DNA of 40,618 nt from a virus (Duplodnaviria > Caudoviricetes), in the IMG/VR virus record IMGVR_UViG_3300028586_000009, positions 1 through 40,618 of that record; one strand, written 5' to 3'. The notes under the pieces were generated by a model that did not search any database, was not told where the DNA came from, and was given only the letters and a program-made list of their open reading frames with translations. A program made the position numbers and the translations under genes. Of the stretch, positions 1,850 through 40,618 are shown in pieces (position 1 is the stretch's first letter; each line of letters opens with the position of its first letter).

Positions 1850-2757
1850 TGTCCCGCACTCCCGGCGGACAGGGTGCGGAAAGCGCGTTTGCCGCCATCT
1901 GCGGCTAAGGCGTTACGGCCCGCATCGCCCTCACTGTGGATCAGCCGGGCAAGCCGCGCCTGTTCGCCATACCATGCCAACGCCTCCCGCAACTCCCCTT
2001 CTCGCGCCTCGGTGGGAGGCGTCGGGGTGGCGGCGAGGAAGGCGAGCAAGCCCAACGCGTATGTGTCAAACTCCTGCGACGTGATTTCCGAACGCCGCAG
2101 TCGATTATGTGCAACCGTGATGCGGGTCAGCACGCGACGCGCTTCATTGCCCTCCCCCTCCTGCGACGTTGCGGGCTGGGTAGCGAGGGCGGCGCGGATC
2201 AGATTGCCGAGCGACGTGAGAATGCCAGAGACGGGATCAGCGATCGACTCCGGCAAGTCTTCGATAATCTCCAAATCGTCTTCGTATTCGGTTGTCAGAA
2301 CCCAATCGCCGGATACGTGGATGGCGCCCTTGATCGCCGCCCGCTGAACGTCGGTCAGCCATGCATCGAGAATGGCCCGCTCCACCTCTCCCGCCTGATT
2401 GGTCGCGGGTGCAGGTTCGGGGGATGCGGCGAGCATGGCGGACCACACCTCGCGTTCGTTCATAATATCGGCGGTCTTGAGGGCTGGATCGGCCTTGATA
2501 CGGACATCCCGATGCAGAGCTTCGAGCATCGCCTCGGTAGGCTCGCGCGGCACCAGCACGTAATCTGCACTCGCGGATGGTACAGAGGCGAGGCGGTGGC
2601 GGGCGAAGGCATGGACGATATCCTTGAAGTCCGCCTGCCCCGTGCGGATGACAGCCGCGTCGATAACATAGCCGCCCTGCGAGTCCAGATAACCCGCAGC
2701 CGCCTCCCGATCCTCCTGCGCAACCGTCACCGCTTGCTGGTCTGTCGTATCGGTCAT
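1846..2757 (-). CDS. Hypothetical mosaic early protein (start MTDTTDQQ)
   Basis: RBS TAGGAG-ATGATGAG-ATG at 2757; contains the VLVPREPTEAM...WSAMLAA module common in phage early genes. Confidence 0.75.
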   Translation of the reverse strand: MTDTTDQQAVTVAQEDREAAAGYLDSQGGYVIDAAVIRTGQADFKDIVHAFARHRLASVPSASADYVLVPREPTEAMLEALHRDVRIKADPALKTADIMNEREVWSAMLAASPEPAPATNQAGEVERAILDAWLTDVQRAAIKGAIHVSGDWVLTTEYEDDLEIIEDLPESIADPVSGILTSLGNLIRAALATQPATSQEGEGNEARRVLTRITVAHNRLRRSEITSQEFDTYALGLLAFLAATPTPPTEAREGELREALAWYGEQARLARLIHSEGDAGRNALAADGGKRAFRTLSAGSAGQ

Positions 2758-2777
2758 CTCATCATCTCCTAAAGGGA

Positions 2778-3477: not shown

Positions 3478-3623
3478 GCTGCCATCTCCATTTTCTCTGT
3501 TCTGCGTGCATCATCCCAACCCCCAAACCATGCAGCCCTAGACGGTCCTGCGAGGCGATAAGGGTTCTGTGCCCGCGTCCGGTTGCGCTGGTAGTCCGTG
3601 GCGCCGATCTGGCGGGGGGTCAT
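3474..3623 (-). CDS. Rmf/CrpP-fold-like protein, 49 aa; not in ORF track
   Basis: MTPRQIGATDYQRNRTRAQNPYRLAGPSRAAWFGGWDDARRTEKMEMAA has the NPY...W.GGW..A pattern of ribosome modulation factor; ATGA overlaps on both sides. Confidence 0.65.
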   Translation of the reverse strand: MTPRQIGATDYQRNRTRAQNPYRLAGPSRAAWFGGWDDARRTEKMEMAA

Positions 3624-4723: not shown

Positions 4724-4830
4724 AATGCGTAGTCCCACTCTGGATCGATGCGGCCGCTTTCAAGCCCGTGCTGCTCATCTTCATCAAGGATGAATTCGAC
4801 CAGAAAATCGTCATCATGTTCAAAGTCCAT
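4720..4830 (-). CDS. Highly acidic 36-aa peptide, first gene of the leftward operon; not in ORF track
   Basis: RBS AAGGGAG; MDFEHDDDFLVEFILDEDEQHGLESGRIDPEWDYAL (14 D/E, 1 R). Confidence 0.65.
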   Translation of the reverse strand: MDFEHDDDFLVEFILDEDEQHGLESGRIDPEWDYAL

Positions 4831-4861
4831 CTCAGCGGCTCCCTTGCTGCGTGTTGAATGG

Positions 4862-4890
4862 GGTATGGGCTCGAAAAAGAATGGCGTCAA
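4862..4890 (-). promoter_or_regulatory. Leftward sigma70-like promoter
   Basis: TTGACG-17 nt-CATACC on the minus strand. Confidence 0.55.
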
Positions 4891-4903
4891 TCATTCTTTT
4901 TCG
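4872..4903. promoter_or_regulatory. Operator-like perfect 12-bp inverted repeat between divergent promoters
   Basis: CGAAAAAGAATG-N8-CATTCTTTTTCG. Confidence 0.65.
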
Positions 4904-4932
4904 TTGACCACTTGTTTTTTCATCGCTAGCTA
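4904..4932 (+). promoter_or_regulatory. Rightward sigma70-like promoter (leaderless transcript)
   Basis: TTGACC-17 nt-TAGCTA, with ATG 7 nt downstream and no SD. Confidence 0.6.
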
Positions 4933-4939
4933 TTGGTCC

Positions 4940-5137
4940 ATGGAAAAACAGCAAGCCATTGCGGCAATCCGAGAGCGGGCCAACGGTGTCCGTGTTCCCA
5001 TCTACAAGCTGTGTGAGAGCGTGAAGGTTTCGCCCGCTACGTTCACACGGTGGAAGACCAATCCAGAGTCTGCCCGCTGGTCGGTTATCGGTAGGCTGGA
5101 GAAGGCTTTGATAGAACTGGAGAAGTTCAGTGTCTGA
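4940..5137 (+). CDS. Cro-like HTH regulator, 65 aa
   Basis: IYKLCESVKVSPATFTRWK helix-turn-helix; first gene of the rightward arm. Confidence 0.75.
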   Translation: MEKQQAIAAIRERANGVRVPIYKLCESVKVSPATFTRWKTNPESARWSVIGRLEKALIELEKFSV

Positions 5138-5426: not shown

Positions 5427-5725
5427 ACCCCCAACCCAACCACTACGCAATCTACACGGGCGGCTTCAAGCCTGTGGTGGTGCGGGTTCTAGGCGTGGCG
5501 GGAGACATCGCTACGGTGCAGGAAGGCACACATCACCAGCTACGCGCACAGCTTTGCGATATCGTTGCATACGGCCCCGCACAGGCCCCGCTAGAGGCCG
5601 CTGTAGGCAAGATGACCCGCGCCACGGCAAAGGGTGACAGGATGCGCGCTAAGGCCCGTAACTGGGTCAAGGATGAACATGCACGGATTGTCCGTGAAGC
5701 TATGGAGATGACTGATGTTCGATAA
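5423..5725 (+). CDS. Hypothetical protein
   Basis: ATGA coupling. Confidence 0.65.
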   Translation: MNPQPNHYAIYTGGFKPVVVRVLGVAGDIATVQEGTHHQLRAQLCDIVAYGPAQAPLEAAVGKMTRATAKGDRMRAKARNWVKDEHARIVREAMEMTDVR

Positions 5726-5858
5726 CCCCTATTTCTACATCGCCGTTGTGATCGCCGGAATTGTGGCGCTCGCGGTGCTTATCGTGAAGTTCATTCCTGA
5801 TGGCTACGAAAACGAGAGCGGCTTTCATTATGGCCGTGAAGATGGAGATGAGATGTGA
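5715..5858 (+). CDS. Small single-TM protein, 47 aa; not in ORF track
   Basis: RBS GGAG; MFDNPYFYIAVVIAGIVALAVLIVKFIPDGYENESGFHYGREDGDEM. Confidence 0.65.
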   Translation: MFDNPYFYIAVVIAGIVALAVLIVKFIPDGYENESGFHYGREDGDEM

Positions 5859-6163: not shown

Positions 6164-6426
6164 CCATCGAAGCCATGTTAGCCGAACGCGGCACGACGTA
6201 TGGGGAATACCCGGTAGGCGCCAAGATCGCGATGGACCTGTTCGATGTGGCGCAGGCCAGCCCGTCGTATCGCAAGATGACAGCGGCGCAGCAATATGCT
6301 GTGTTTATGATCCTGGCGAAGCTGTCGAGGGCGTTAAACGGCGACCCGAACCATATCGACGACTGGAGCGACGTGGTTGGGTACGCCACTCTCGTCCTCA
6401 ATACCCTAACCGGAGATGAAAAATGA
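6160..6426 (+). CDS. DUF6378-like protein
   Basis: LAERGTTYG...MILAKLSRALNGDPNHIDDWSDVVGYA. Confidence 0.75.
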   Translation: MTIEAMLAERGTTYGEYPVGAKIAMDLFDVAQASPSYRKMTAAQQYAVFMILAKLSRALNGDPNHIDDWSDVVGYATLVLNTLTGDEK

Positions 6427-7220: not shown

Positions 7221-7901
7221 ATGACGATCAAATATCACAACGATCTTGTGCAAGGATCGGATTCTTGGCTGGCTGCTAGGGCTGGCCTGCTGACGGCTTC
7301 CGAGATGCACAAGATCATTACACCAACGCTGAAGATTGCAGATAACGATAAAACCAAAGCCCACGTCTGGGAGCTATTGGCACAGCGTATCAGCGGGCAT
7401 GTCGAGCCCCAATATGTATCAGATGATATGTTGAGGGGGCAGGCTGACGAGATACGCGCGCGTGACCTGTATCGCGAGCATTACGCCGACACGCAGACGG
7501 CTGGCTTCATCACGAATGACGAATGGGGCTTTACGATTGGCTATTCGCCCGACGATCTAGTCGGTGATGAAGGCTTGATCGAATGTAAGAGCCGTCGCCA
7601 GCGTTTTCAGATTCAGACGATTGTCGAGAATGTAGAAACCGGAATCGCCGTCCCAGATTACCTGATGCAATGCCAGACCGGAATGCTGGTGACAAAGCGT
7701 AAATGGTGCGACCTCATTTCCTACAGCGGCGGTTTGCCTCTTGCCGTTATTCGGATCAATGCTGACCCAGCAATTCAAGAGGCAATTGTCGCAGCGGCTA
7801 CCGCTTTCGAAAACAAGCTTGCCGAAAAGCTGGCAATCTATGAGCGGGTAGCCAAAAACCTAATTCCTACCGAACGCGTAACTGAGATGGAGATGTTTTG
7901 A
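7221..7901 (+). CDS. YqaJ/lambda-exonuclease family nuclease
   Basis: QGSDSWLAARAGLLTASE, YSPDDLVG..GLIECK, YLMQCQ motifs. Confidence 0.9.
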   Translation: MTIKYHNDLVQGSDSWLAARAGLLTASEMHKIITPTLKIADNDKTKAHVWELLAQRISGHVEPQYVSDDMLRGQADEIRARDLYREHYADTQTAGFITNDEWGFTIGYSPDDLVGDEGLIECKSRRQRFQIQTIVENVETGIAVPDYLMQCQTGMLVTKRKWCDLISYSGGLPLAVIRINADPAIQEAIVAAATAFENKLAEKLAIYERVAKNLIPTERVTEMEMF

Positions 7902-10081: not shown

Positions 10082-10576
10082 ATGGAAGTCTGGTTGCCAG
10101 TTTTAGGTTATGAGTCCTCTTACGAGGTTAGTAACCTTGGACGTGTTAGGCGTCTTTCTACGGGCTTGATACTCCAGTATGTGTACAACGTTAAAGGCTA
10201 TCCCATAGTTACGCTATCTCAATATGGCGTTTCCAAAAACAGCGCTGTTCATCGGATAGTTCTTAGGGCATTTTGCGGTGCCGAGCCTTTCGATGGCGCG
10301 CAAGCTGCACACAACGATGGTAACGTTGGAAACCCCCGGCTTACAAATTTACGCTGGACTAGCCCAACTGAAAACCAAGCAGATCGTGTCAGGCATCGTA
10401 CAGACCTTAGAGGTGAGGCAGTTTTTGGCGCTGTTCTGACGAAGGATAAGGTTAGAGAAATCCGCGAAAAGGTTTCAACAGGTAGAACCTATAAACAGCT
10501 AGGAAAAGAATATGGCGTAGATCCTGGCACCATCTATCACATTAAACACCGCAAAACATGGAAGCACGTAATATGA
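10082..10576 (+). CDS. NUMOD4-HNH homing endonuclease with C-terminal HTH
   Basis: EVWLPV.GYE..YEVSNLGRVR, VHRIVL.AF, HNDGN..NPRLTNLRW; AT-richer codon usage. Confidence 0.9.
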   Translation: MEVWLPVLGYESSYEVSNLGRVRRLSTGLILQYVYNVKGYPIVTLSQYGVSKNSAVHRIVLRAFCGAEPFDGAQAAHNDGNVGNPRLTNLRWTSPTENQADRVRHRTDLRGEAVFGAVLTKDKVREIREKVSTGRTYKQLGKEYGVDPGTIYHIKHRKTWKHVI

Positions 10577-10830
10577 GCAACATCGCAAACGTAGCCGCTG
10601 AAGAGGTCCGTCTTTTGATCGAACGTGTCGAAAGATTAGAGACGGAGAAGGCCGGTATCTCGGACGATATCAAGGACACGTTCAAGGAGGCGTCGGGTCG
10701 AGGCTTTGATGTGAAGGCCCTCAAGACGATCATCGCTATCCGCAAGAAGGACAAGGACAAGGTTCAGGAAGAGCGCGCCATTCTCGACGTCTATCTTGAC
10801 GCGATGGGCATGCAGTACGCGATGCTGTGA
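10573..10830 (+). CDS. gapR: GapR/DUF2312 nucleoid-associated protein
   Basis: LLIERVERLETEKAGISDDIKDTFKEASGRGFDVKALKTIIAIRK...ILDVYLDAMGM. Confidence 0.9.
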   Translation: MSNIANVAAEEVRLLIERVERLETEKAGISDDIKDTFKEASGRGFDVKALKTIIAIRKKDKDKVQEERAILDVYLDAMGMQYAML

Positions 10831-11358: not shown

Positions 11359-12622
11359 CATGGACGATCCAGACAACCTGAACAAGTATTGGGATTCACT
11401 CCCAGAGCGTACACCGGAGGATGACGGCTGGAGTTTTGAGCCGCCGCCTGCAAAGCTAAGGATCGTAAACGATGAATTCAGGGCGGAAAGCGCGCCCGAT
11501 CGACTGGTGAAGGCAACACCATTTACGTGGCGTCCTACTGCTGAGATACCCCGGCGCGAATGGCTTTACGGTAGGCATCTGCTGCGCAAGTTCGTCTCGC
11601 TGGATGTCGCTGCTGGCGGCGTCGGTAAATCGTCGCTCAAGATCGGTGAAGCCCTTTCGATGTCGACCGGACGCGACCTCTACAACAAGGGATTGCCAGA
11701 AGGCCCGTTAAAGGTCTGGATGTGGAACCTGGAGGATCCGCACGACGAAATCGAGCGCCGTCTTCACGCGACCGCACAGCTATTCAATATCAAGGCCGAA
11801 GAGATTGACGGACGCCTGTTTGTCGACAGTGGACGCGATCAACCGCTGGTGATGGCAACGGAAGGCCCGAGCGGCGCCATGATCGTTCGGCCGGTGATCG
11901 ACGCGCTTATTGAAGAAATGCTGGCGCGCGGGATCGACGTGCTTCAGGTTGACCCATTCGTCAGCTCGCACGCGGTTAGTGAGAACGACAACAACGCAAT
12001 TGATATTGTCGCGCGCGAATGGAACGTGGTGGCAGAGCGAACCGGAGCATCGATCAACCTCGTCCACCACGTCAGGAAGCAAAACGGGGACGCGGCAACC
12101 GCCGATAGCGCGCGCGGTGCATCGGCACTAATTGGCAAGGCCCGGTCTGTGCTGGTTTATAACCGGATGACACCCGAAGAGGCAAAGAACCTTGGTATCG
12201 ACGAAGACCAACGTCGATTCTTTTTCCGCGTTGACAACGACAAGGCGAACCTTGCCCCACCTGAAGGCGGCGACTGGTATCGCATGAACAACGTCGATCT
12301 TGAGAACGGTGATAGCGTCGGCGTCGCATGTTCGTGGACACCGCCCGATCTATTCGAGGGAATGACCGCCAGCCACCTTTACCGGGTGCAGAAAGCCGTA
12401 GCCGAAGGCGAATGGCGCGAGAATATCCAGTCCAATGAATGGGTGGGCATTCCAGTCTCACACGCGCTCTTGATGGATCATAGCGAGGAAAAGGACAGGA
12501 AAAAGATTGCTCGCTTCATTAAAGTCTGGATCAAAGAAGGGGCCTTGGAGGTGGTCGACAAAGAGGATAAACAGCGTCGGTCACGCAAGTTTGTGGTCGT
12601 CGGAAAGTGGGTTGAGATGTAG
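11339..12622 (+). CDS. AAA_25/RepA-like SF4 replicative helicase
   Basis: Walker A AAGGVGKS, NLED, Walker B LQVDP, LVHHVRK, ARGASAL. Confidence 0.85.
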   Translation: MMAGMDDMDDPDNLNKYWDSLPERTPEDDGWSFEPPPAKLRIVNDEFRAESAPDRLVKATPFTWRPTAEIPRREWLYGRHLLRKFVSLDVAAGGVGKSSLKIGEALSMSTGRDLYNKGLPEGPLKVWMWNLEDPHDEIERRLHATAQLFNIKAEEIDGRLFVDSGRDQPLVMATEGPSGAMIVRPVIDALIEEMLARGIDVLQVDPFVSSHAVSENDNNAIDIVAREWNVVAERTGASINLVHHVRKQNGDAATADSARGASALIGKARSVLVYNRMTPEEAKNLGIDEDQRRFFFRVDNDKANLAPPEGGDWYRMNNVDLENGDSVGVACSWTPPDLFEGMTASHLYRVQKAVAEGEWRENIQSNEWVGIPVSHALLMDHSEEKDRKKIARFIKVWIKEGALEVVDKEDKQRRSRKFVVVGKWVEM

Positions 12623-12781
12623 TTGCTCCACTATAAAAAAAGGCAGGTGGAGCAAGGTGGAGCAGGTGGCGCAAGAAGCAACCTGTAAACTTGCTCCACC
12701 ACCACCTCCCTCCCTATGGGAGGTGGTGGGTGGAGCAAGTGGAGCAGACCGGATTTGAGGTGATAGATAGAGGTGGAGCAA
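12623..12781. repeat. Iteron/hairpin cluster, putative replication origin
   Basis: Eight copies of GTGG(A/C)GCA in both orientations plus a 22-bp inverted repeat (12689-12740). Confidence 0.7.
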
Positions 12782-12832
12782 AATGCCCTAGCGATGCAGG
12801 CTTAAAATCAGAAATCACAAAAAGGAAAAACA

Positions 12833-13372: not shown

Positions 13373-13392
13373 GAACATTAGGGAGATACGAG

Positions 13393-13575
13393 ATGACCAC
13401 CGACATGATGAACGCACTGGCAGCACGGGTTAAGGCAAAGCGCGAGGCCGCTGGCACCAACGTCCGGTTTGTGAATGAGCGCGGGCAGGCTGACGAGTTT
13501 TCGTTTGCTACCGCAGAGCGTGCCGAGGCTTTTCGCGCTGCTCGGGTTCGTATGGGTTCGGAGATGCTGGCGTGA
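13393..13575 (+). CDS. Hypothetical protein
   Basis: RBS AGGGAGATACGAG-ATG. Confidence 0.7.
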   Translation: MTTDMMNALAARVKAKREAAGTNVRFVNERGQADEFSFATAERAEAFRAARVRMGSEMLA

Positions 13576-14267
13576 CACGCAACATCGTCAGCCTGTTCGA
13601 CGAGTCCGGTAACATGGGGCGCCCGTGGGCAGAAGCGGGATATGCCGTCCACTGCTTCGATATTCTCAACGCCGACAAGGAAACGGAATATTTCGAAGGC
13701 GGTGGCCTGATTATGTATCACTACGCGGATCTGGACGATTATGCGCAGTGGCCGTTCATCAAGTCGCTTCGCCCTTCGATCATGTTCTCTTTCAGCCCGT
13801 GCGATGACGTGGCGGTGTCCGGTTCGCTGCACTTCGCCAAGAAGCTTGCCGCAAACCCCGAATGCCAGCGTATTGCCTGTGAGCGTGCGCGGCTGGTTGA
13901 GCGGCTGGCATCGGAGGTCGGTTGCGCATGGATGCACGAGAACCCCGTGTCAGTGCTGTCGACCATGTGGCGCAAGCCGGACTTTCATTTTCATCCGTCT
14001 GACTATGGCGGGTATCTGCCCGAGGATGACGTGCACCCCCGCTGGCCTGAGTACATTGCGCCGCGTGATGCTTACCCTAAGAAAACCGGCATTCGCTGCG
14101 GTGGGGGTTTCATCAAACCAGCCATGAAGCCGGTGGAGCGCCCTGAAGGCTTCTCGACACAGTTTCACAAGCTTGGTGGCAAGTCTGCCAAGACCAAGCA
14201 GATACGATCAGAAACACCACGCGGATTTGCGCTTGCGGTATTCCAGGAGAATTCGAAATGGCTTTGA
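13572..14267 (+). CDS. Phage Dcm-like DNA cytosine methyltransferase
   Basis: SLFDESG (motif I), FSPCDD (PC), HENPVSVL (ENP), YPKKT, RSETPRGFA. Confidence 0.8.
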   Translation: MTRNIVSLFDESGNMGRPWAEAGYAVHCFDILNADKETEYFEGGGLIMYHYADLDDYAQWPFIKSLRPSIMFSFSPCDDVAVSGSLHFAKKLAANPECQRIACERARLVERLASEVGCAWMHENPVSVLSTMWRKPDFHFHPSDYGGYLPEDDVHPRWPEYIAPRDAYPKKTGIRCGGGFIKPAMKPVERPEGFSTQFHKLGGKSAKTKQIRSETPRGFALAVFQENSKWL

Positions 14268-14452
14268 CAACCACACAACGCACGGCCAAGCATCGGCTGG
14301 CGGTGAAGGAGAGGATGGCTCGGATGGAAAGGGCTCTGGTGTTGATCGCTGCGGATAATATCTGGGATGACGCTTCGGACTTGCGTCAGATTGCTCGTGA
14401 GGGCCTTGCAGTGCCAGATACCCCAACCACCACACCCAAAACCCCCGAATGA
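14258..14452 (+). CDS. Hypothetical protein
   Basis: RBS AGGAG. Confidence 0.6.
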   Translation: MALTTTQRTAKHRLAVKERMARMERALVLIAADNIWDDASDLRQIAREGLAVPDTPTTTPKTPE

Positions 14453-14512
14453 GGCTGTAGACCCCCTAGGAGGCGGTCTGAAGGGCATTCTAACACGATA
14501 GGGAGATACGAG

Positions 14513-14815
14513 ATGGCAACGCCAAAGATGAAACGGGTAGTGATAGAAAACATTGCCCATGAGCTGAGCGAGGGTATCGACAGGGCTATTGCGGTGCTTC
14601 AGGGACACAAAGCTCGATACGAGGCAGAGGGCTACACGAACCTGGAACTCGAAATTGAGACTGATTACGAGTATGGCGATACCTACGCCCGCGCGTATCT
14701 CAGTGGAGAGCGCATGGAAACCGAGCACGAAATGGCGCTCCGCGAATGGGCTGCGCGTGATGCGGACCAACGCGAGCGCAATCGGTATGAAGCGCTAAAG
14801 GCCAAGTTCGGTTAA
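14513..14815 (+). CDS. Hypothetical protein
   Basis: RBS AGGGAGATACGAG-ATG; ends YEALKAKFG. Confidence 0.7.
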   Translation: MATPKMKRVVIENIAHELSEGIDRAIAVLQGHKARYEAEGYTNLELEIETDYEYGDTYARAYLSGERMETEHEMALREWAARDADQRERNRYEALKAKFG

Positions 14816-14851
14816 CACCCCGCCCGTATGGGCATGAATGGAGAGATTGAG

Positions 14852-15028
14852 ATGATCGATTGGATTGAATGGAATGGAGGCGACTGGGACGGCGCTCCAG
14901 ATGAAATCGTTGAGGTTAAATATCGAAGCGGCGTAACTGAAACATGTGCTGCATCAGAGGTGGCTTGGTTCAAGCACGATTGGTCCGCCAATCGGGAAGA
15001 TATCGTAGCTTACCGCGTCGTTTCATGA
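14852..15028 (+). CDS. Conserved phage protein (WIEWNGG...DIVAYRVV)
   Basis: Recognisable motif; GGAGAGATTGAG-ATG. Confidence 0.7.
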   Translation: MIDWIEWNGGDWDGAPDEIVEVKYRSGVTETCAASEVAWFKHDWSANREDIVAYRVVS

Positions 15029-15204
15029 CCCACGCCAACGCCGCCAACGACCGCTACCACCAGCTCCTAGCCCTGTCCCGCATGGGCGCGAACCGTGAGG
15101 AGGCTGCGCGGTCCGTGGGGGTTAGCCTCAAGGGTATGGAGGGGTTGCTGTGGCGGCGGTTGGGAAGTGGGGTGTGGCCGGTTGTTTTTGATAAGGAGAG
15201 TTGA
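15025..15204 (+). CDS. Small HTH-like protein
   Basis: GANREEAARSVGVSLKGM; ATGA coupling. Confidence 0.55.
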   Translation: MTHANAANDRYHQLLALSRMGANREEAARSVGVSLKGMEGLLWRRLGSGVWPVVFDKES

Positions 15205-15205
15205 G

Positions 15206-15445
15206 ATGGCGATGAAAGACATTAGCGACGTGCAGGTTCTTCAGGCTGTTACAAAGGCTCGCGCATCGAATTTCGAACTTTGGCCTTACGATATTCTCGA
15301 AACGGAAACCAAGCAGCATTGGAAAGTCTGTTTCCGGGCTATGGAGCGGGCTGAACGTCGTGGGCTGTTGGAATGCGGAGTTTCTCTGCGAACCGGTTGG
15401 CTGACCGAGAAAGGCAAGGCATTGGTCGCCAGTGCTCTCACGTAG
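15206..15445 (+). CDS. Winged-helix-like hypothetical protein
   Basis: AAGGAGAGTTGAG-ATG; RAMERAERRGLLECGVSLRTGWLTEKG. Confidence 0.65.
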   Translation: MAMKDISDVQVLQAVTKARASNFELWPYDILETETKQHWKVCFRAMERAERRGLLECGVSLRTGWLTEKGKALVASALT

Positions 15446-15447
15446 AC

Positions 15448-15534
15448 ACAAAAAATCCGGGGAGCGTCAGCTTAGGGAGAAGCCGCTCAACCCGGATCAT
15501 TGGCGCCGTCGATGGAGATGAAACATCGCGACGC
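15448..15534 (-). ncRNA. Putative two-hairpin antisense sRNA with anti-start and anti-SD loops
   Basis: Minus-strand promoter TTGCGT-18-TATATG (15568-15539). Hairpin 1 loop is UUUCAUCUC; hairpin 2 loop is CUCCCU and ends in a U-tract. Confidence 0.65.
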
Positions 15535-15582
15535 TGGACATATACCGCGAGTTCGTGCATATACGCAATAGGGAGATTTGAG

Positions 15583-16050
15583 ATGGAATTCGGACCTGAG
15601 ATTAAAGTTGATGGGGTTCGGCCTGAGTGGCTTGAGGATGATGATGCCATGGAGTACAGACATTCTATGGATCGGCCAGAGGATGGCATGATTCCCGTCA
15701 CAAGGCATGGCGGGTGGTCTGCCGGTGACTGGAAGTGTGTTACCGCCATTCGCCTCTCCGCCACGCATTCCTGCTATCAGACCACCCCAACCCGCACGCC
15801 GCTGGAGGATAGGATGGTGGCGCATATGCTGGACAGCTGGAGGTCAATGGCAAAAGTAGATCCAAAAGATGTTGGCCCGCACTTCGCAGCTAACTGGATC
15901 GAAACCGCCAAAAGTATTCTAGCTGAGGCAGAGAACCCGGATATTACCGAGGCACGGATTTTGGTCGAGTCGATGAATAATGCTTCGGACGAAGATATTG
16001 CGCTCGCCGCTCTCGCTCGCGGGCGCCAACTCGAAAAGGAAGGCAAGTGA
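15583..16050 (+). CDS. Hypothetical protein (start MEFGPEI)
   Basis: RBS AGGGAGATTTGAG-ATG. Confidence 0.7.
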   Translation: MEFGPEIKVDGVRPEWLEDDDAMEYRHSMDRPEDGMIPVTRHGGWSAGDWKCVTAIRLSATHSCYQTTPTRTPLEDRMVAHMLDSWRSMAKVDPKDVGPHFAANWIETAKSILAEAENPDITEARILVESMNNASDEDIALAALARGRQLEKEGK

Positions 16051-16552: not shown

Positions 16553-16891
16553 ATGGAGAATCCTGAAGTTACAGGCGAAATCAGGGATACCCGATTCAAG
16601 CCCGGTCAGTCTGGCAATCCCGCTGGACGTCCTAAGGGCGCGCGTGCAAGACTTGGTGAAGCATTCATTGACGCATTGCTGGCGGATTGGAACACTAATG
16701 GCGTAAAAGCCATCATCGATATGAGAGATGAGCGTCCAGGCGATTATGTGAAGATTGTCGCGTCCATCCTTCCGAAAGAACTTAGTGGCCCCGATGGCGA
16801 GGCTATAAAGCATGAAGTCAAAGCCCTTGCTGTTGGCAAGCTGTCCGAAGGGTCTTTGCGCGAAATTGCAGGCTTGGGAGATGAATCATGA
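16553..16891 (+). CDS. terS: Terminase small subunit (DUF5681-type N-terminus)
   Basis: TRFKPGQSGNPAGRPKG...ELSGPDGEAI; lies upstream of TerL. Confidence 0.8.
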   Translation: MENPEVTGEIRDTRFKPGQSGNPAGRPKGARARLGEAFIDALLADWNTNGVKAIIDMRDERPGDYVKIVASILPKELSGPDGEAIKHEVKALAVGKLSEGSLREIAGLGDES

Positions 16892-38263: not shown

Positions 38264-38571
38264 TGGATGAAAATGATCGTCGCATCATCCTTGTTGCTAT
38301 GGCCGCTATAGGCGGTGCTATTGTGTCAGTCTGGTCCCTGCCATGGAAAGCGATGCATTGGCGAGAGATTGCCTTTGCTCTAGTCGTCGGCACGTTCTTT
38401 GGTGTCTTTGGCGTTCCTCTGGTGGTGGCTGATATGTTTCACGTCGATATCACTCCTATACGCGTTGCTTGCGGCACGACGTTCTTTGGCTCGGCATTCG
38501 GCATTGGTCTTATCCCGCTAATCCGAAAGAAGATCATCCTTATGCTTGGCCTGAAGGGAGAGCCGGAATGA
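38260..38571 (+). CDS. Holin-like 3-TM protein
   Basis: Three hydrophobic segments and a basic C-terminus; upstream of the endolysin. Confidence 0.6.
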   Translation: MMDENDRRIILVAMAAIGGAIVSVWSLPWKAMHWREIAFALVVGTFFGVFGVPLVVADMFHVDITPIRVACGTTFFGSAFGIGLIPLIRKKIILMLGLKGEPE

Positions 38572-40047: not shown

Positions 40048-40081
40048 TCGGCTTCTCCCTCTCGCCCGTATCGAGTTGTTC

Positions 40082-40291
40082 TCAACGCAAACGCCGCCTT
40101 GGCGTCCGGCTGCTCCCCCCCCATATCTCAGCAATCCAGCGGTCTAGATCTCGCTTATACACAGGCATGTCAGGGGACATATCATTGATCCGCGCCACTA
40201 CGGCTTGAAATAGTCCCCGATATGGCGCTTGAAGAGCCTCCGCATGATGATACGTTGGAATATGTGCGCATTGCTCGCAAGGTAGGCTCAC
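40082..40291 (-). CDS. Hypothetical protein, 69 aa
   Basis: GAGGAGG RBS; GTGA overlap with the PEP-CTERM stop. Confidence 0.55.
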   Translation of the reverse strand: MSLPCEQCAHIPTYHHAEALQAPYRGLFQAVVARINDMSPDMPVYKRDLDRWIAEIWGGSSRTPRRRLR

Positions 40292-40618
40292 AGCTTCCTC
40301 CTCCGCATAACACCACCAATACCCCCAAACCCAAAGATCATCAGCGCCCACTTGGAAGGCTCTGGAACGGGGCTGACGGTTACAGGCGTGCCAACTGGTG
40401 GCAAAGCTCCTACGCCGCCTATGTTGCCACCTCCTACGCCGATAAACCCCCCAGACCCACCACCACCCGCAAACCCGCCGCCTCCAGGCACACACTCAGC
40501 GGTTGCGATGGCTGCGGCGGGTGCAATGGGTAGGTCGGTGGCGGGGATGGGCTTACGGGCCTCCGCAACGTACTTACGGACGGGATTAGGATGCACGCGC
40601 TCCACAACCCGGTTGATC
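40288..40618 (-). CDS. PEPxxWA-CTERM protein, C-terminal part
   Basis: Gly-rich linker then VPEPSKWALMIFGFGGIGGVMRRRKL (PEP motif, TM helix, basic tail). Confidence 0.9.
   Translation of the reverse strand, partial: INRVVERVHPNPVRKYVAEARKPIPATDLPIAPAAAIATAECVPGGGGFAGGGGSGGFIGVGGGNIGGVGALPPVGTPVTVSPVPEPSKWALMIFGFGGIGGVMRRRKL
40492..40618. repeat. Terminal direct repeat, copy 2
   Basis: Identical to 1-127. Confidence 0.95.

Follow-up and report, generated by a model that had tools for sequence, protein, structure and literature searches.

The phage antisense RNAs sar, OOP, c4 and CI are each described, in the passages of the literature on which we draw, as acting on a single phage transcript, and sRNAs that reach many mRNAs through sequences complementary to the Shine-Dalgarno (SD) element are described for bacterial chromosomes (passages of PMC8844928; further literature for comparison includes parts of PMC2864571). 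The window analysed here, that is, the whole 40,618-nt record of a phage with a 127-nt terminal repeat, encodes a predicted RNA which would combine sar- or c4-like chemistry with AbcR-like breadth and is a member of neither group. We propose that this RNA probably, though by no means certainly, acts in trans and lowers the translation of numerous early genes of the same phage.

P22 sar shares with the cis-encoded members of the RNA family described below a promoter of its own inside the 5' end of the target, a terminator of its own, and a pairing with the ribosome-binding site (RBS) that blocks initiation (NC_002371; passages of PMC12197685). However, sar has one cis target, ant, whereas the window RNA overlaps no cis start and has many predicted targets in trans; sar also yields no match to our family model R2 at E ≤ 10 and has no bulged core in its terminator. 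Lambda and P22 OOP resemble the family in being antisense RNAs located just upstream of an O-like initiator. OOP acts on cII mRNA via RNase III (passages of PMC12197685), whereas the window RNA does not lie beside its replication gene. Model R2 assigns 9.2 bits (E 2.6) to lambda OOP and does not hit P22 oop at E ≤ 10.

The RNA c4 of P1 and P7 (RF01695) displays in its loops sequences complementary to the surroundings of an RBS (passages of PMC12197685), as is predicted for the window RNA. It controls an antirepressor operon as part of repressor-based immunity, however, whereas the predicted targets in the window are dispersed and neither a repressor nor an antirepressor was found, no antirepressor being recognized among the 76 window ORFs compared with PHROGs. 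P4 CI likewise presents a loop-displayed complement that acts on two sites (passages of PMC4825925); it is processed from the transcript that it controls, pairs with seqA and seqC and causes termination, whereas the window RNA has its own predicted promoter and a U-tract opposite all neighbouring genes. AbcR1/2 (alpha-r15) and NfeR1 of alphaproteobacteria come close in another respect, since they expose two single-stranded anti-SD seeds and act on many mRNAs in trans (passages of PMC8844928). These RNAs are chromosomal and Hfq-dependent, with seeds CUCCUCCC and UUCCCCUC and host metabolic targets. Unlike AbcR, loop 1 of the window RNA includes an anti-start codon and the predicted targets are the phage's own genes; the window RNA has no Rfam match to AbcR/alpha-r15 or alpha-r14, and its seeds differ from the CUCCUCCC type.

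Architecture of the predicted RNA

The features of the element are as follows.

15449..15535, minus strand: predicted sRNA of about 87 nt, its ends inferred
15563..15568, minus strand: predicted -35 box TTGCGT of the sRNA promoter (TTGCG or TTGCC in 9 of 9 distinct homologues, spacer variable)
15539..15544, minus strand: predicted -10 box TATATG, 18 nt from the -35 box
15503..15534, minus strand: hairpin 1, whose stem differs among homologues
15515..15523, minus strand: loop 1, UUUCAUCUC, with the closing C the complement of GGAGAUGAAA; anti-start and anti-SD seed
15455..15497, minus strand: hairpin 2, terminator-like, the family-defining module
15486..15490, minus strand: UU bulge, then G-C and A-U pairs; sequence-conserved core with the local pattern of the HIV TAR and 7SK arginine-sandwich bulge
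15474..15479, minus strand: loop 2, CUCCCU, anti-SD seed, complement of AGGGAG
15450..15455, minus strand: U-tract of six U
15535..15563, plus strand: candidate promoter of gene 15583, TGGACA-17-CATATA, divergent from the sRNA promoter and overlapping it (inferred from sequence)

The promoter boxes, two hairpins and U-tract that the original prediction had read on the minus strand are present as described, and folding likewise bears it out: the minimum-energy structure (-38.8 kcal/mol; z -4.33; none of 200 shuffles equally stable) comprises two hairpins with open loops, the bases of loops 1 and 2 being 97-100% unpaired. A simple promoter/terminator scanner reported neither an sRNA promoter nor a terminator at the element; the support for both is comparative. 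One public RNA run, in which the record has a share of 0.05, yielded a single 167-nt contig that lies outside the element, and such contigs carry no information on strand or level. Taken with its homologues, the element likely gives rise to an 87-nt transcript that starts at its own sigma70-like promoter.

A fold of about equal stability is predicted for the reverse complement (-34 to -40 versus -35 to -39 kcal/mol), and this would also be expected if the functional molecule were plus-strand mRNA, as a processing site or as a decoy presenting SD and AUG in a loop, or a DNA hairpin. On the plus strand an SD and an ATG often follow the hairpin, which fits as well, but the U-tract and the promoter sit on the minus strand across the family, and we regard such readings as very improbable.

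Conservation among close homologues

In nine distinct homologues both loops are invariant while the stem of hairpin 1 has been rewritten in several ways, and double changes occur at 6 of the 23 consensus pairs; both promoter boxes are retained and the spacer between them varies. Some of these homologues were first found with patterns containing the loops, which makes loop conservation circular for them, and the same loops are present in members found with loop-free patterns, namely at seven loci (L415-417, L423, L437, L452 and L472) and at L765. Locus L333, a probable copy of the same record that equals the window in length and is identical at the element, was left out of the counts. The covariation proposed as a check in the original prediction is thus seen, with varying stems and constant loops, and points to an element under structural selection.

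On the plus strand loop 1 contains an ATG, to which GGAG directly abuts without usable SD spacing, and the frames that start there comprise 4, 12, 17, 193 or 197 codons depending on the homologue. Because of this spacing and these variable lengths, the window RNA has no conserved cis target. A 17-codon plus-strand leader starting at this ATG was considered and rejected, since it is not conserved among the homologues.

Three of the relatives carry a second family member (L815:2674-2758 in G006, L821:2924-3008 in G008 and L824:3182-3271 in G009); the one in G009 overlaps the start of an inserted gene for a 62-residue membrane protein just upstream of the main RNA.

Predicted targets in the window

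Sites complementary to the loops were located at the following gene starts.

13380..13395, plus strand: start of 13393-13575, both loops
14500..14515, plus strand: start of 14513-14815, both loops
15570..15585, plus strand: start of 15583-16050, both loops
4828..4844, minus strand: start of 4830, first gene of the leftward early operon, both loops
14840..14854, plus strand: start of 14852, loop 1
15195..15208, plus strand: start of 15206, loop 1
2755..2769, minus strand: start of 2757, loop 1 twice
3483..3489, minus strand: GGAGATG as SD of gene 3477, loop 1
5704..5710, plus strand: GGAGATG as SD of gene 5715, loop 1
5844..5855, plus strand: GGAGATGAGATG ahead of gene 5855, loop 1
6412..6421, plus strand: GGAGATGAAA, a 10-nt complement of loop 1, as SD of gene 6423
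7889..7895, plus strand: GGAGATG as SD of gene 7903, loop 1
13560..13566, plus strand: GGAGATG as SD of gene 13572 (cytosine methylase), loop 1
16877..16885, plus strand: GGAGATGAA in the SD position of gene 16888, a gene that overlaps the start of the terminase, loop 1

A motif of the type GGAG...GAGATG had been noticed at seven named starts, and the pattern GGAG-N3..7-GAGATG indeed occurs seven times in the window, always at a gene start, as against a mean of 0.4 and a maximum of 3 in 100 Markov-1 simulations. The more specific claim that AGGGAG and GAGATG stand together at these starts holds for four of the seven (13393, 14513, 15583 and 4830) and fails for 14852, 15206 and 2757, which lack AGGGAG. 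GAGATG lies at the start codon of 7, and GGAGATG in the SD position of 8, of the 14 starts with a loop-1 complement, one start having both, and since loop 1 also matches starts that use GGAGATG as SD, the target set is larger than originally proposed. Complements of loop 1 occur at 14 of 49 early but 0 of 25 late starts (p 0.002) and, among starts led by GGAG, at 14 of 26 early but 0 of 8 late ones (p 0.011); these p-values are too small, because early-region leaders are common by descent in the five genomes with this RNA type and the starts are therefore not independent. Matches of at least 10 nt are present at 5 of the 59 starts in the window (0.08 expected), and the both-loop starts 13393, 15583 and 4830 lie directly behind predicted promoters.

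The complement of loop 2, AGGGAG, is found at seven early starts and one late start (p 0.25, not significant), alongside the loop-1 word at four genes and as a site for loop 2 alone at four more. With AGGGAG at just 4 of the 14 loop-1 starts, a general clamp by both loops is not supported. The broader suggestion that the RNA silences a dispersed early regulon in trans survives without that clamp, as trans-acting antisense control with early targets. The gene at 38568, once named as a nearly perfect target, offers seven contiguous complementary bases, and these are not kept in the 90%-identical homologue of G006.

Start motif and RNA type across genomes

In an unbiased scan of gene starts in the five genomes with this RNA type (the window and four relatives), GAGATG ranked first of 2423 hexamers and AGGGAGA seventh of 3812 heptamers. 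GAGATG is present in 64 of 289 start windows of these genomes versus 36 of 682 in 14 related phages, and the loop-1 complement at 58 of 175 versus 27 of 359 GGAG-led starts, gene starts outside the window being taken from a heuristic caller. Three of the relatives (G007-G009) have 6-9% of the window's DNA and no head genes in common with it, yet possess the RNA type and the motif, while G001, whose terminase is 94% identical to that of the window, has a cis RNA type and few motif starts. Among these genomes the putative target word therefore follows the RNA type and not the virion module. Matches of at least 10 nt number two in G007 and none in G006, G008 and G009; G016 and G017 have 4-5 GAGATG starts each with only weak hits to the model.

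These counts are to be read with regard to descent. Each gene slot keeps its leader by inheritance, with exchange of the ORF behind it at the ATG (46 starts correspond to 35 N-terminal families), the 59 start windows fall into 32-44 leader groups, and the window lineage may count as one event. The same exchange is visible at 14820-15590 and in the relatives, where leaders are conserved and unrelated ORFs have been swapped exactly at the ATG, among genomes as well as among co-occurring strains.

Such inheritance would also fit an RNA that acted in cis only, either as an antisense to read-through early mRNA over 15449-15535, with loop-loop pairing leading to cleavage or attenuation before 15583, or as a mere antisense terminator, the start motif then being a side effect of duplicated leaders and swapped cassettes. 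We consider this unlikely, though it is an explanation to be taken seriously: leaders are kept slot by slot while the ORFs behind them change, co-occurring strains exchange genes on either side of the element, and cis overlap with a start is frequent in the family, sister phages of the window included (see below). A perfect cis complement would not constrain the loops, however, and yet these are invariant while the stems change; moreover, the most enriched hexamer is the exact complement of loop 1, found also in SD register in other operons, and an unrelated phage, G060, exhibits the same link between RNA and gene starts with another sequence.

In G060 the loop of hairpin 2 differs from that of the window, and its 12-nt complement occurs at the RBS of three genes, the four sites in 47.6 kb being the strand opposite the RNA itself and these three starts; at 10 nt, 3 of 51 starts match (0.00 expected). 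G060 thus represents one clear case, as judged from the sequences, of a putative co-change of loop and target outside the window's lineage. A second candidate, G002, in which the RNA reads CAUCAC and GTGATG starts are frequent, was rejected because such starts are also frequent in genomes without such an RNA. When loop hexamers are pooled, the window ranks second of 31. Across 17 other lineages the excess of loop complements in the own genome is weak (KS p 0.012; 3 of 17 within the top three ranks), and near the bottom of this ranking stand G036, G052, G062 and G068, four members of the cis or leader type. Host SD preference could explain this weak excess.

Host SD usage also enters an explanation which we hold to be quite improbable, namely that the RNA is aimed at host mRNAs as a generic, AbcR-like anti-SD RNA, or titrates a host RNA or protein, and that the phage leaders match it through host SD usage. 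Loops rich in C and U occur throughout the family, and AbcR1/2 are described as reaching hundreds of host mRNAs via two anti-SD motifs (passages of PMC8844928). Against this, related phages which most likely have similar hosts are devoid of GAGATG enrichment; late genes avoid the word, a pattern that fits self-targeting as well as a broad repressor from which the late genes are shielded.

An RNA family beyond the window

The stem of hairpin 2 recurs in sister phages with different loops. A stem-only pattern retrieved 64 viral loci, as compared with 2 for a permuted hairpin of equal composition. When the upper stem was left free, at least three further bases were paired in 44 of 73 distinct matches; when the lower stem was left free, pairing was found in 61 of 87 among the matches listed, with 19 different triplet pairs. 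Once the bulge and both pairs directly above were left free, the bulged geometry reappeared in 25 of 58 distinct matches, related sequences included. CU-rich loops lie 5' of hairpin 2 in 36 of 44 matches. Of 44 distinct viral matches counted before any filtering, 23 had the U-tract on the strand that bears it in the window, and none had it on the opposite strand. Filtering for pairing and U-tract left 94 hairpins in 63 clusters, so that pair counts, made on 39 of these clusters, are biased towards structure. In 28 of the 63 clusters a TTG-17/18-TA promoter-like match precedes the RNA on its own strand, versus 0 and 2 of 63 in two controls. Hairpin 2 defines a widespread family of predicted phage RNAs that is absent from Rfam.

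Rfam gave no match for the window at the gathering score, nor at E ≤ 10 over 15300-15700, so the comparison that the original prediction had suggested connects the element with no known model, c4 (RF01695) included. The same holds for family elements elsewhere (14 loci at the gathering score; two sets of 20 loci, 5 of them shared, at E ≤ 1), where the lone signal is a sub-threshold R1162 on the opposite strand of L740. A blastn comparison of the element with 50,697 annotated phages returned short matches at chance level only. No description of this RNA was found in the literature covered, most subscription papers lying outside that coverage. The family may be among the 10,006 unnamed candidates of PMC10690425, to judge from the accessible parts of that source, of whose six listed supplementary files three were covered by a motif search.

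Cis-encoding, as in sar and OOP, is seen in 22 of the 63 clusters, whereas the window copy overlaps no conserved ORF. In 14 clusters a gene on the opposite strand has its SD and start covered by the RNA, and in the other 8 the covered SD and start belong to a 15-19 codon ORF that runs into the start of a long ORF, much as in P22, where the short ORF to which gene 18 is coupled overlaps with the oop promoter. The long ORF behind such a leader encodes an initiator or primosomal protein in seven cases and a primase in one; at L411, L412, L445, L451, L717, L734, L738 and L623 the stop of the covered leader overlaps the initiator or primase start. The putative leader-coupled control of replication at these loci resembles that of plasmids such as R1. 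First long ORFs on the opposite strand were found in 37 of 62 clusters, and the 36 that were scanned (one being left out) comprise 14 initiator or primosomal proteins, 1 primase, 4 HNH proteins, 2 Cas4-like nucleases, 2 matches to other families and 13 without a match. Three-hairpin members without a cis start (L414, L449 and L460 as well as L638, L652 and L602) have a CU-rich loop in each hairpin or a repeated GCCCUC.

The RNA overlaps a neighbouring gene start in the sister phages L457, L458, L441 and L413, and the neighbouring gene in L458 and L441 is a homologue of window gene 15583. On account of these sisters, the window RNA appears to descend from a cis-antisense member of its family.

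The sequence-conserved core of hairpin 2 invites comparison with the arginine sandwich of TAR and 7SK, in which, as described in passages of PMC6189040, the first U of a pyrimidine bulge can form a triple with an A-U pair two steps up, beside a G-C pair. With these positions left free in the search, UY-GA/UC was found in 18 and GA/UC in 21 of the 25 bulged matches. The U-Y, G-C, A-U arrangement is thus alike, as a local pattern known from sequence and not as homology.

In bacterial genomes the U-tract accompanies 6 of 118 pattern matches, and 6 full-length model matches were obtained in 100 of 120 loci, so that most bacterial pattern matches look like chance occurrences. At L558, L576 and L577 the bulged hairpin follows the apparent 3' terminus of a 5S rRNA gene.

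The hydrophobic peptide gene

One further site had drawn attention in the original prediction.

40049..40060, minus strand: 12-nt complement of the loop and stem of hairpin 2, in the RBS of the peptide gene 40047-39895

The complement is present at 40060-40049 as had been stated; it is perfect, covers the RBS of a gene for a 50-residue peptide that is hydrophobic by sequence, and is the best match among 75 starts. That the RNA is a type I antitoxin for this peptide we nonetheless find scarcely credible: a single genome of 19 proved to carry the gene, and none of the four others with this RNA type did, half of the match requires opening of the stem, and the peptide matches no Pfam or PHROG family. 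Nor is the linkage that of a type I toxin-antitoxin pair, the peptide gene being some 16 kb distant on the circular map and occurring in 1 of 5 genomes with the RNA type. Antitoxin control is accordingly dropped as the role of the RNA; the gene may be one more target, but it does not explain the RNA.

Proposed mode of action

Trans antisense action on early genes is supported by loop conservation, by the strand and promoter statistics, by motif enrichment and by one independent co-change of loop and target. If the RNA indeed acts as a repressor of early genes, an early sigma70-type promoter would give rise to a stable 87-nt RNA whose open loops seed pairing at the RBSs of early genes and thereby lower 30S loading. 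Loop 1 (UUUCAUCUC-C) would be the main seed, pairing with GAGAUG at the start codon or with GGAGAUG as SD at 14 early genes, and loop 2 (CUCCCU) would provide a second contact at AGGGAG sites, contact by both loops being conceivable at four starts; the seeds measure 6-10 nt and are partly generic anti-SD sequences. Build-up of the RNA in the course of infection would then reduce the synthesis of early proteins. In 0 of 5 genomes (the window and the four relatives with its RNA type) was a tyrosine integrase, a resolvase, an S24 repressor domain or a ParA found, which leaves no sign of a lysogenic state to be maintained and makes control of timing or dosage of early proteins the likely purpose; toxic early products, and perhaps also co-infecting kin, might be limited in the same way. 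In such a phage RNA alone, by way of a start word common to 14-18 early genes, would time their expression, and the retention of the same leader by fast-swapping early genes would be explained.

It is tempting to go further, although the following scenario is speculative and in our estimate doubtful. The terminator hairpin with its TAR-like bulge would be a module equipped with exchangeable antisense loops, on which a phage or host protein rich in arginine docks; from cis control of replication-initiator leaders it would have been turned, at least twice (in the window lineage and in G060), into a trans-acting master regulator in a phage without CI, and new genes would join the regulon by arriving behind a matching leader. 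Apart from any such role, the sequence-conserved bulge of the family points to a binding partner, and the element opens the way to a sizeable group of phage RNAs with ties to replication initiators.

Genome context

The small protein encoded at 14258-14452 has a basic N-terminal helix, with homologues in the vicinity of the RNA in 8 of 9 close relatives bearing it and a weak homologue in G004, where no RNA was found; the protein atlas returned nothing for it, and as a lead only it may be named as a candidate binder of the bulged hairpin.

The phage sequence is present in three public DNA runs, one of which may be its source, and the runs are leaf-litter metagenomes. The genome encodes a P22-like head and DNA-ejection module, a YqaJ exonuclease, an AAA_25 replication protein, a cytosine methylase, a GapR-like protein and a PEP-CTERM protein, the last two of which suggest an alphaproteobacterial host. 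The GapR-like nucleoid protein is encoded at 10558-10830 (PF10073, E 1e-28). The PEP-CTERM gene (40288-40605, minus strand, continuing across the terminal repeat; PF07589 above cut-off, with the motif in terminal position) belongs to the leftward early operon and lies just before the hydrophobic peptide gene.

Back-to-back promoters at 4860-4945, with TTGACG-17-CATACC leftward and TTGACC rightward, and a 65-residue Cro-like ORF at 4940-5137 with homologues in six relatives give this region the appearance of a lambda-like switch that lacks a CI gene. At 12620-12785, immediately behind the replication gene, about seven copies of TGGAGCA in both orientations surround a long inverted repeat (12691-12741), and this segment looks like an iteron origin.
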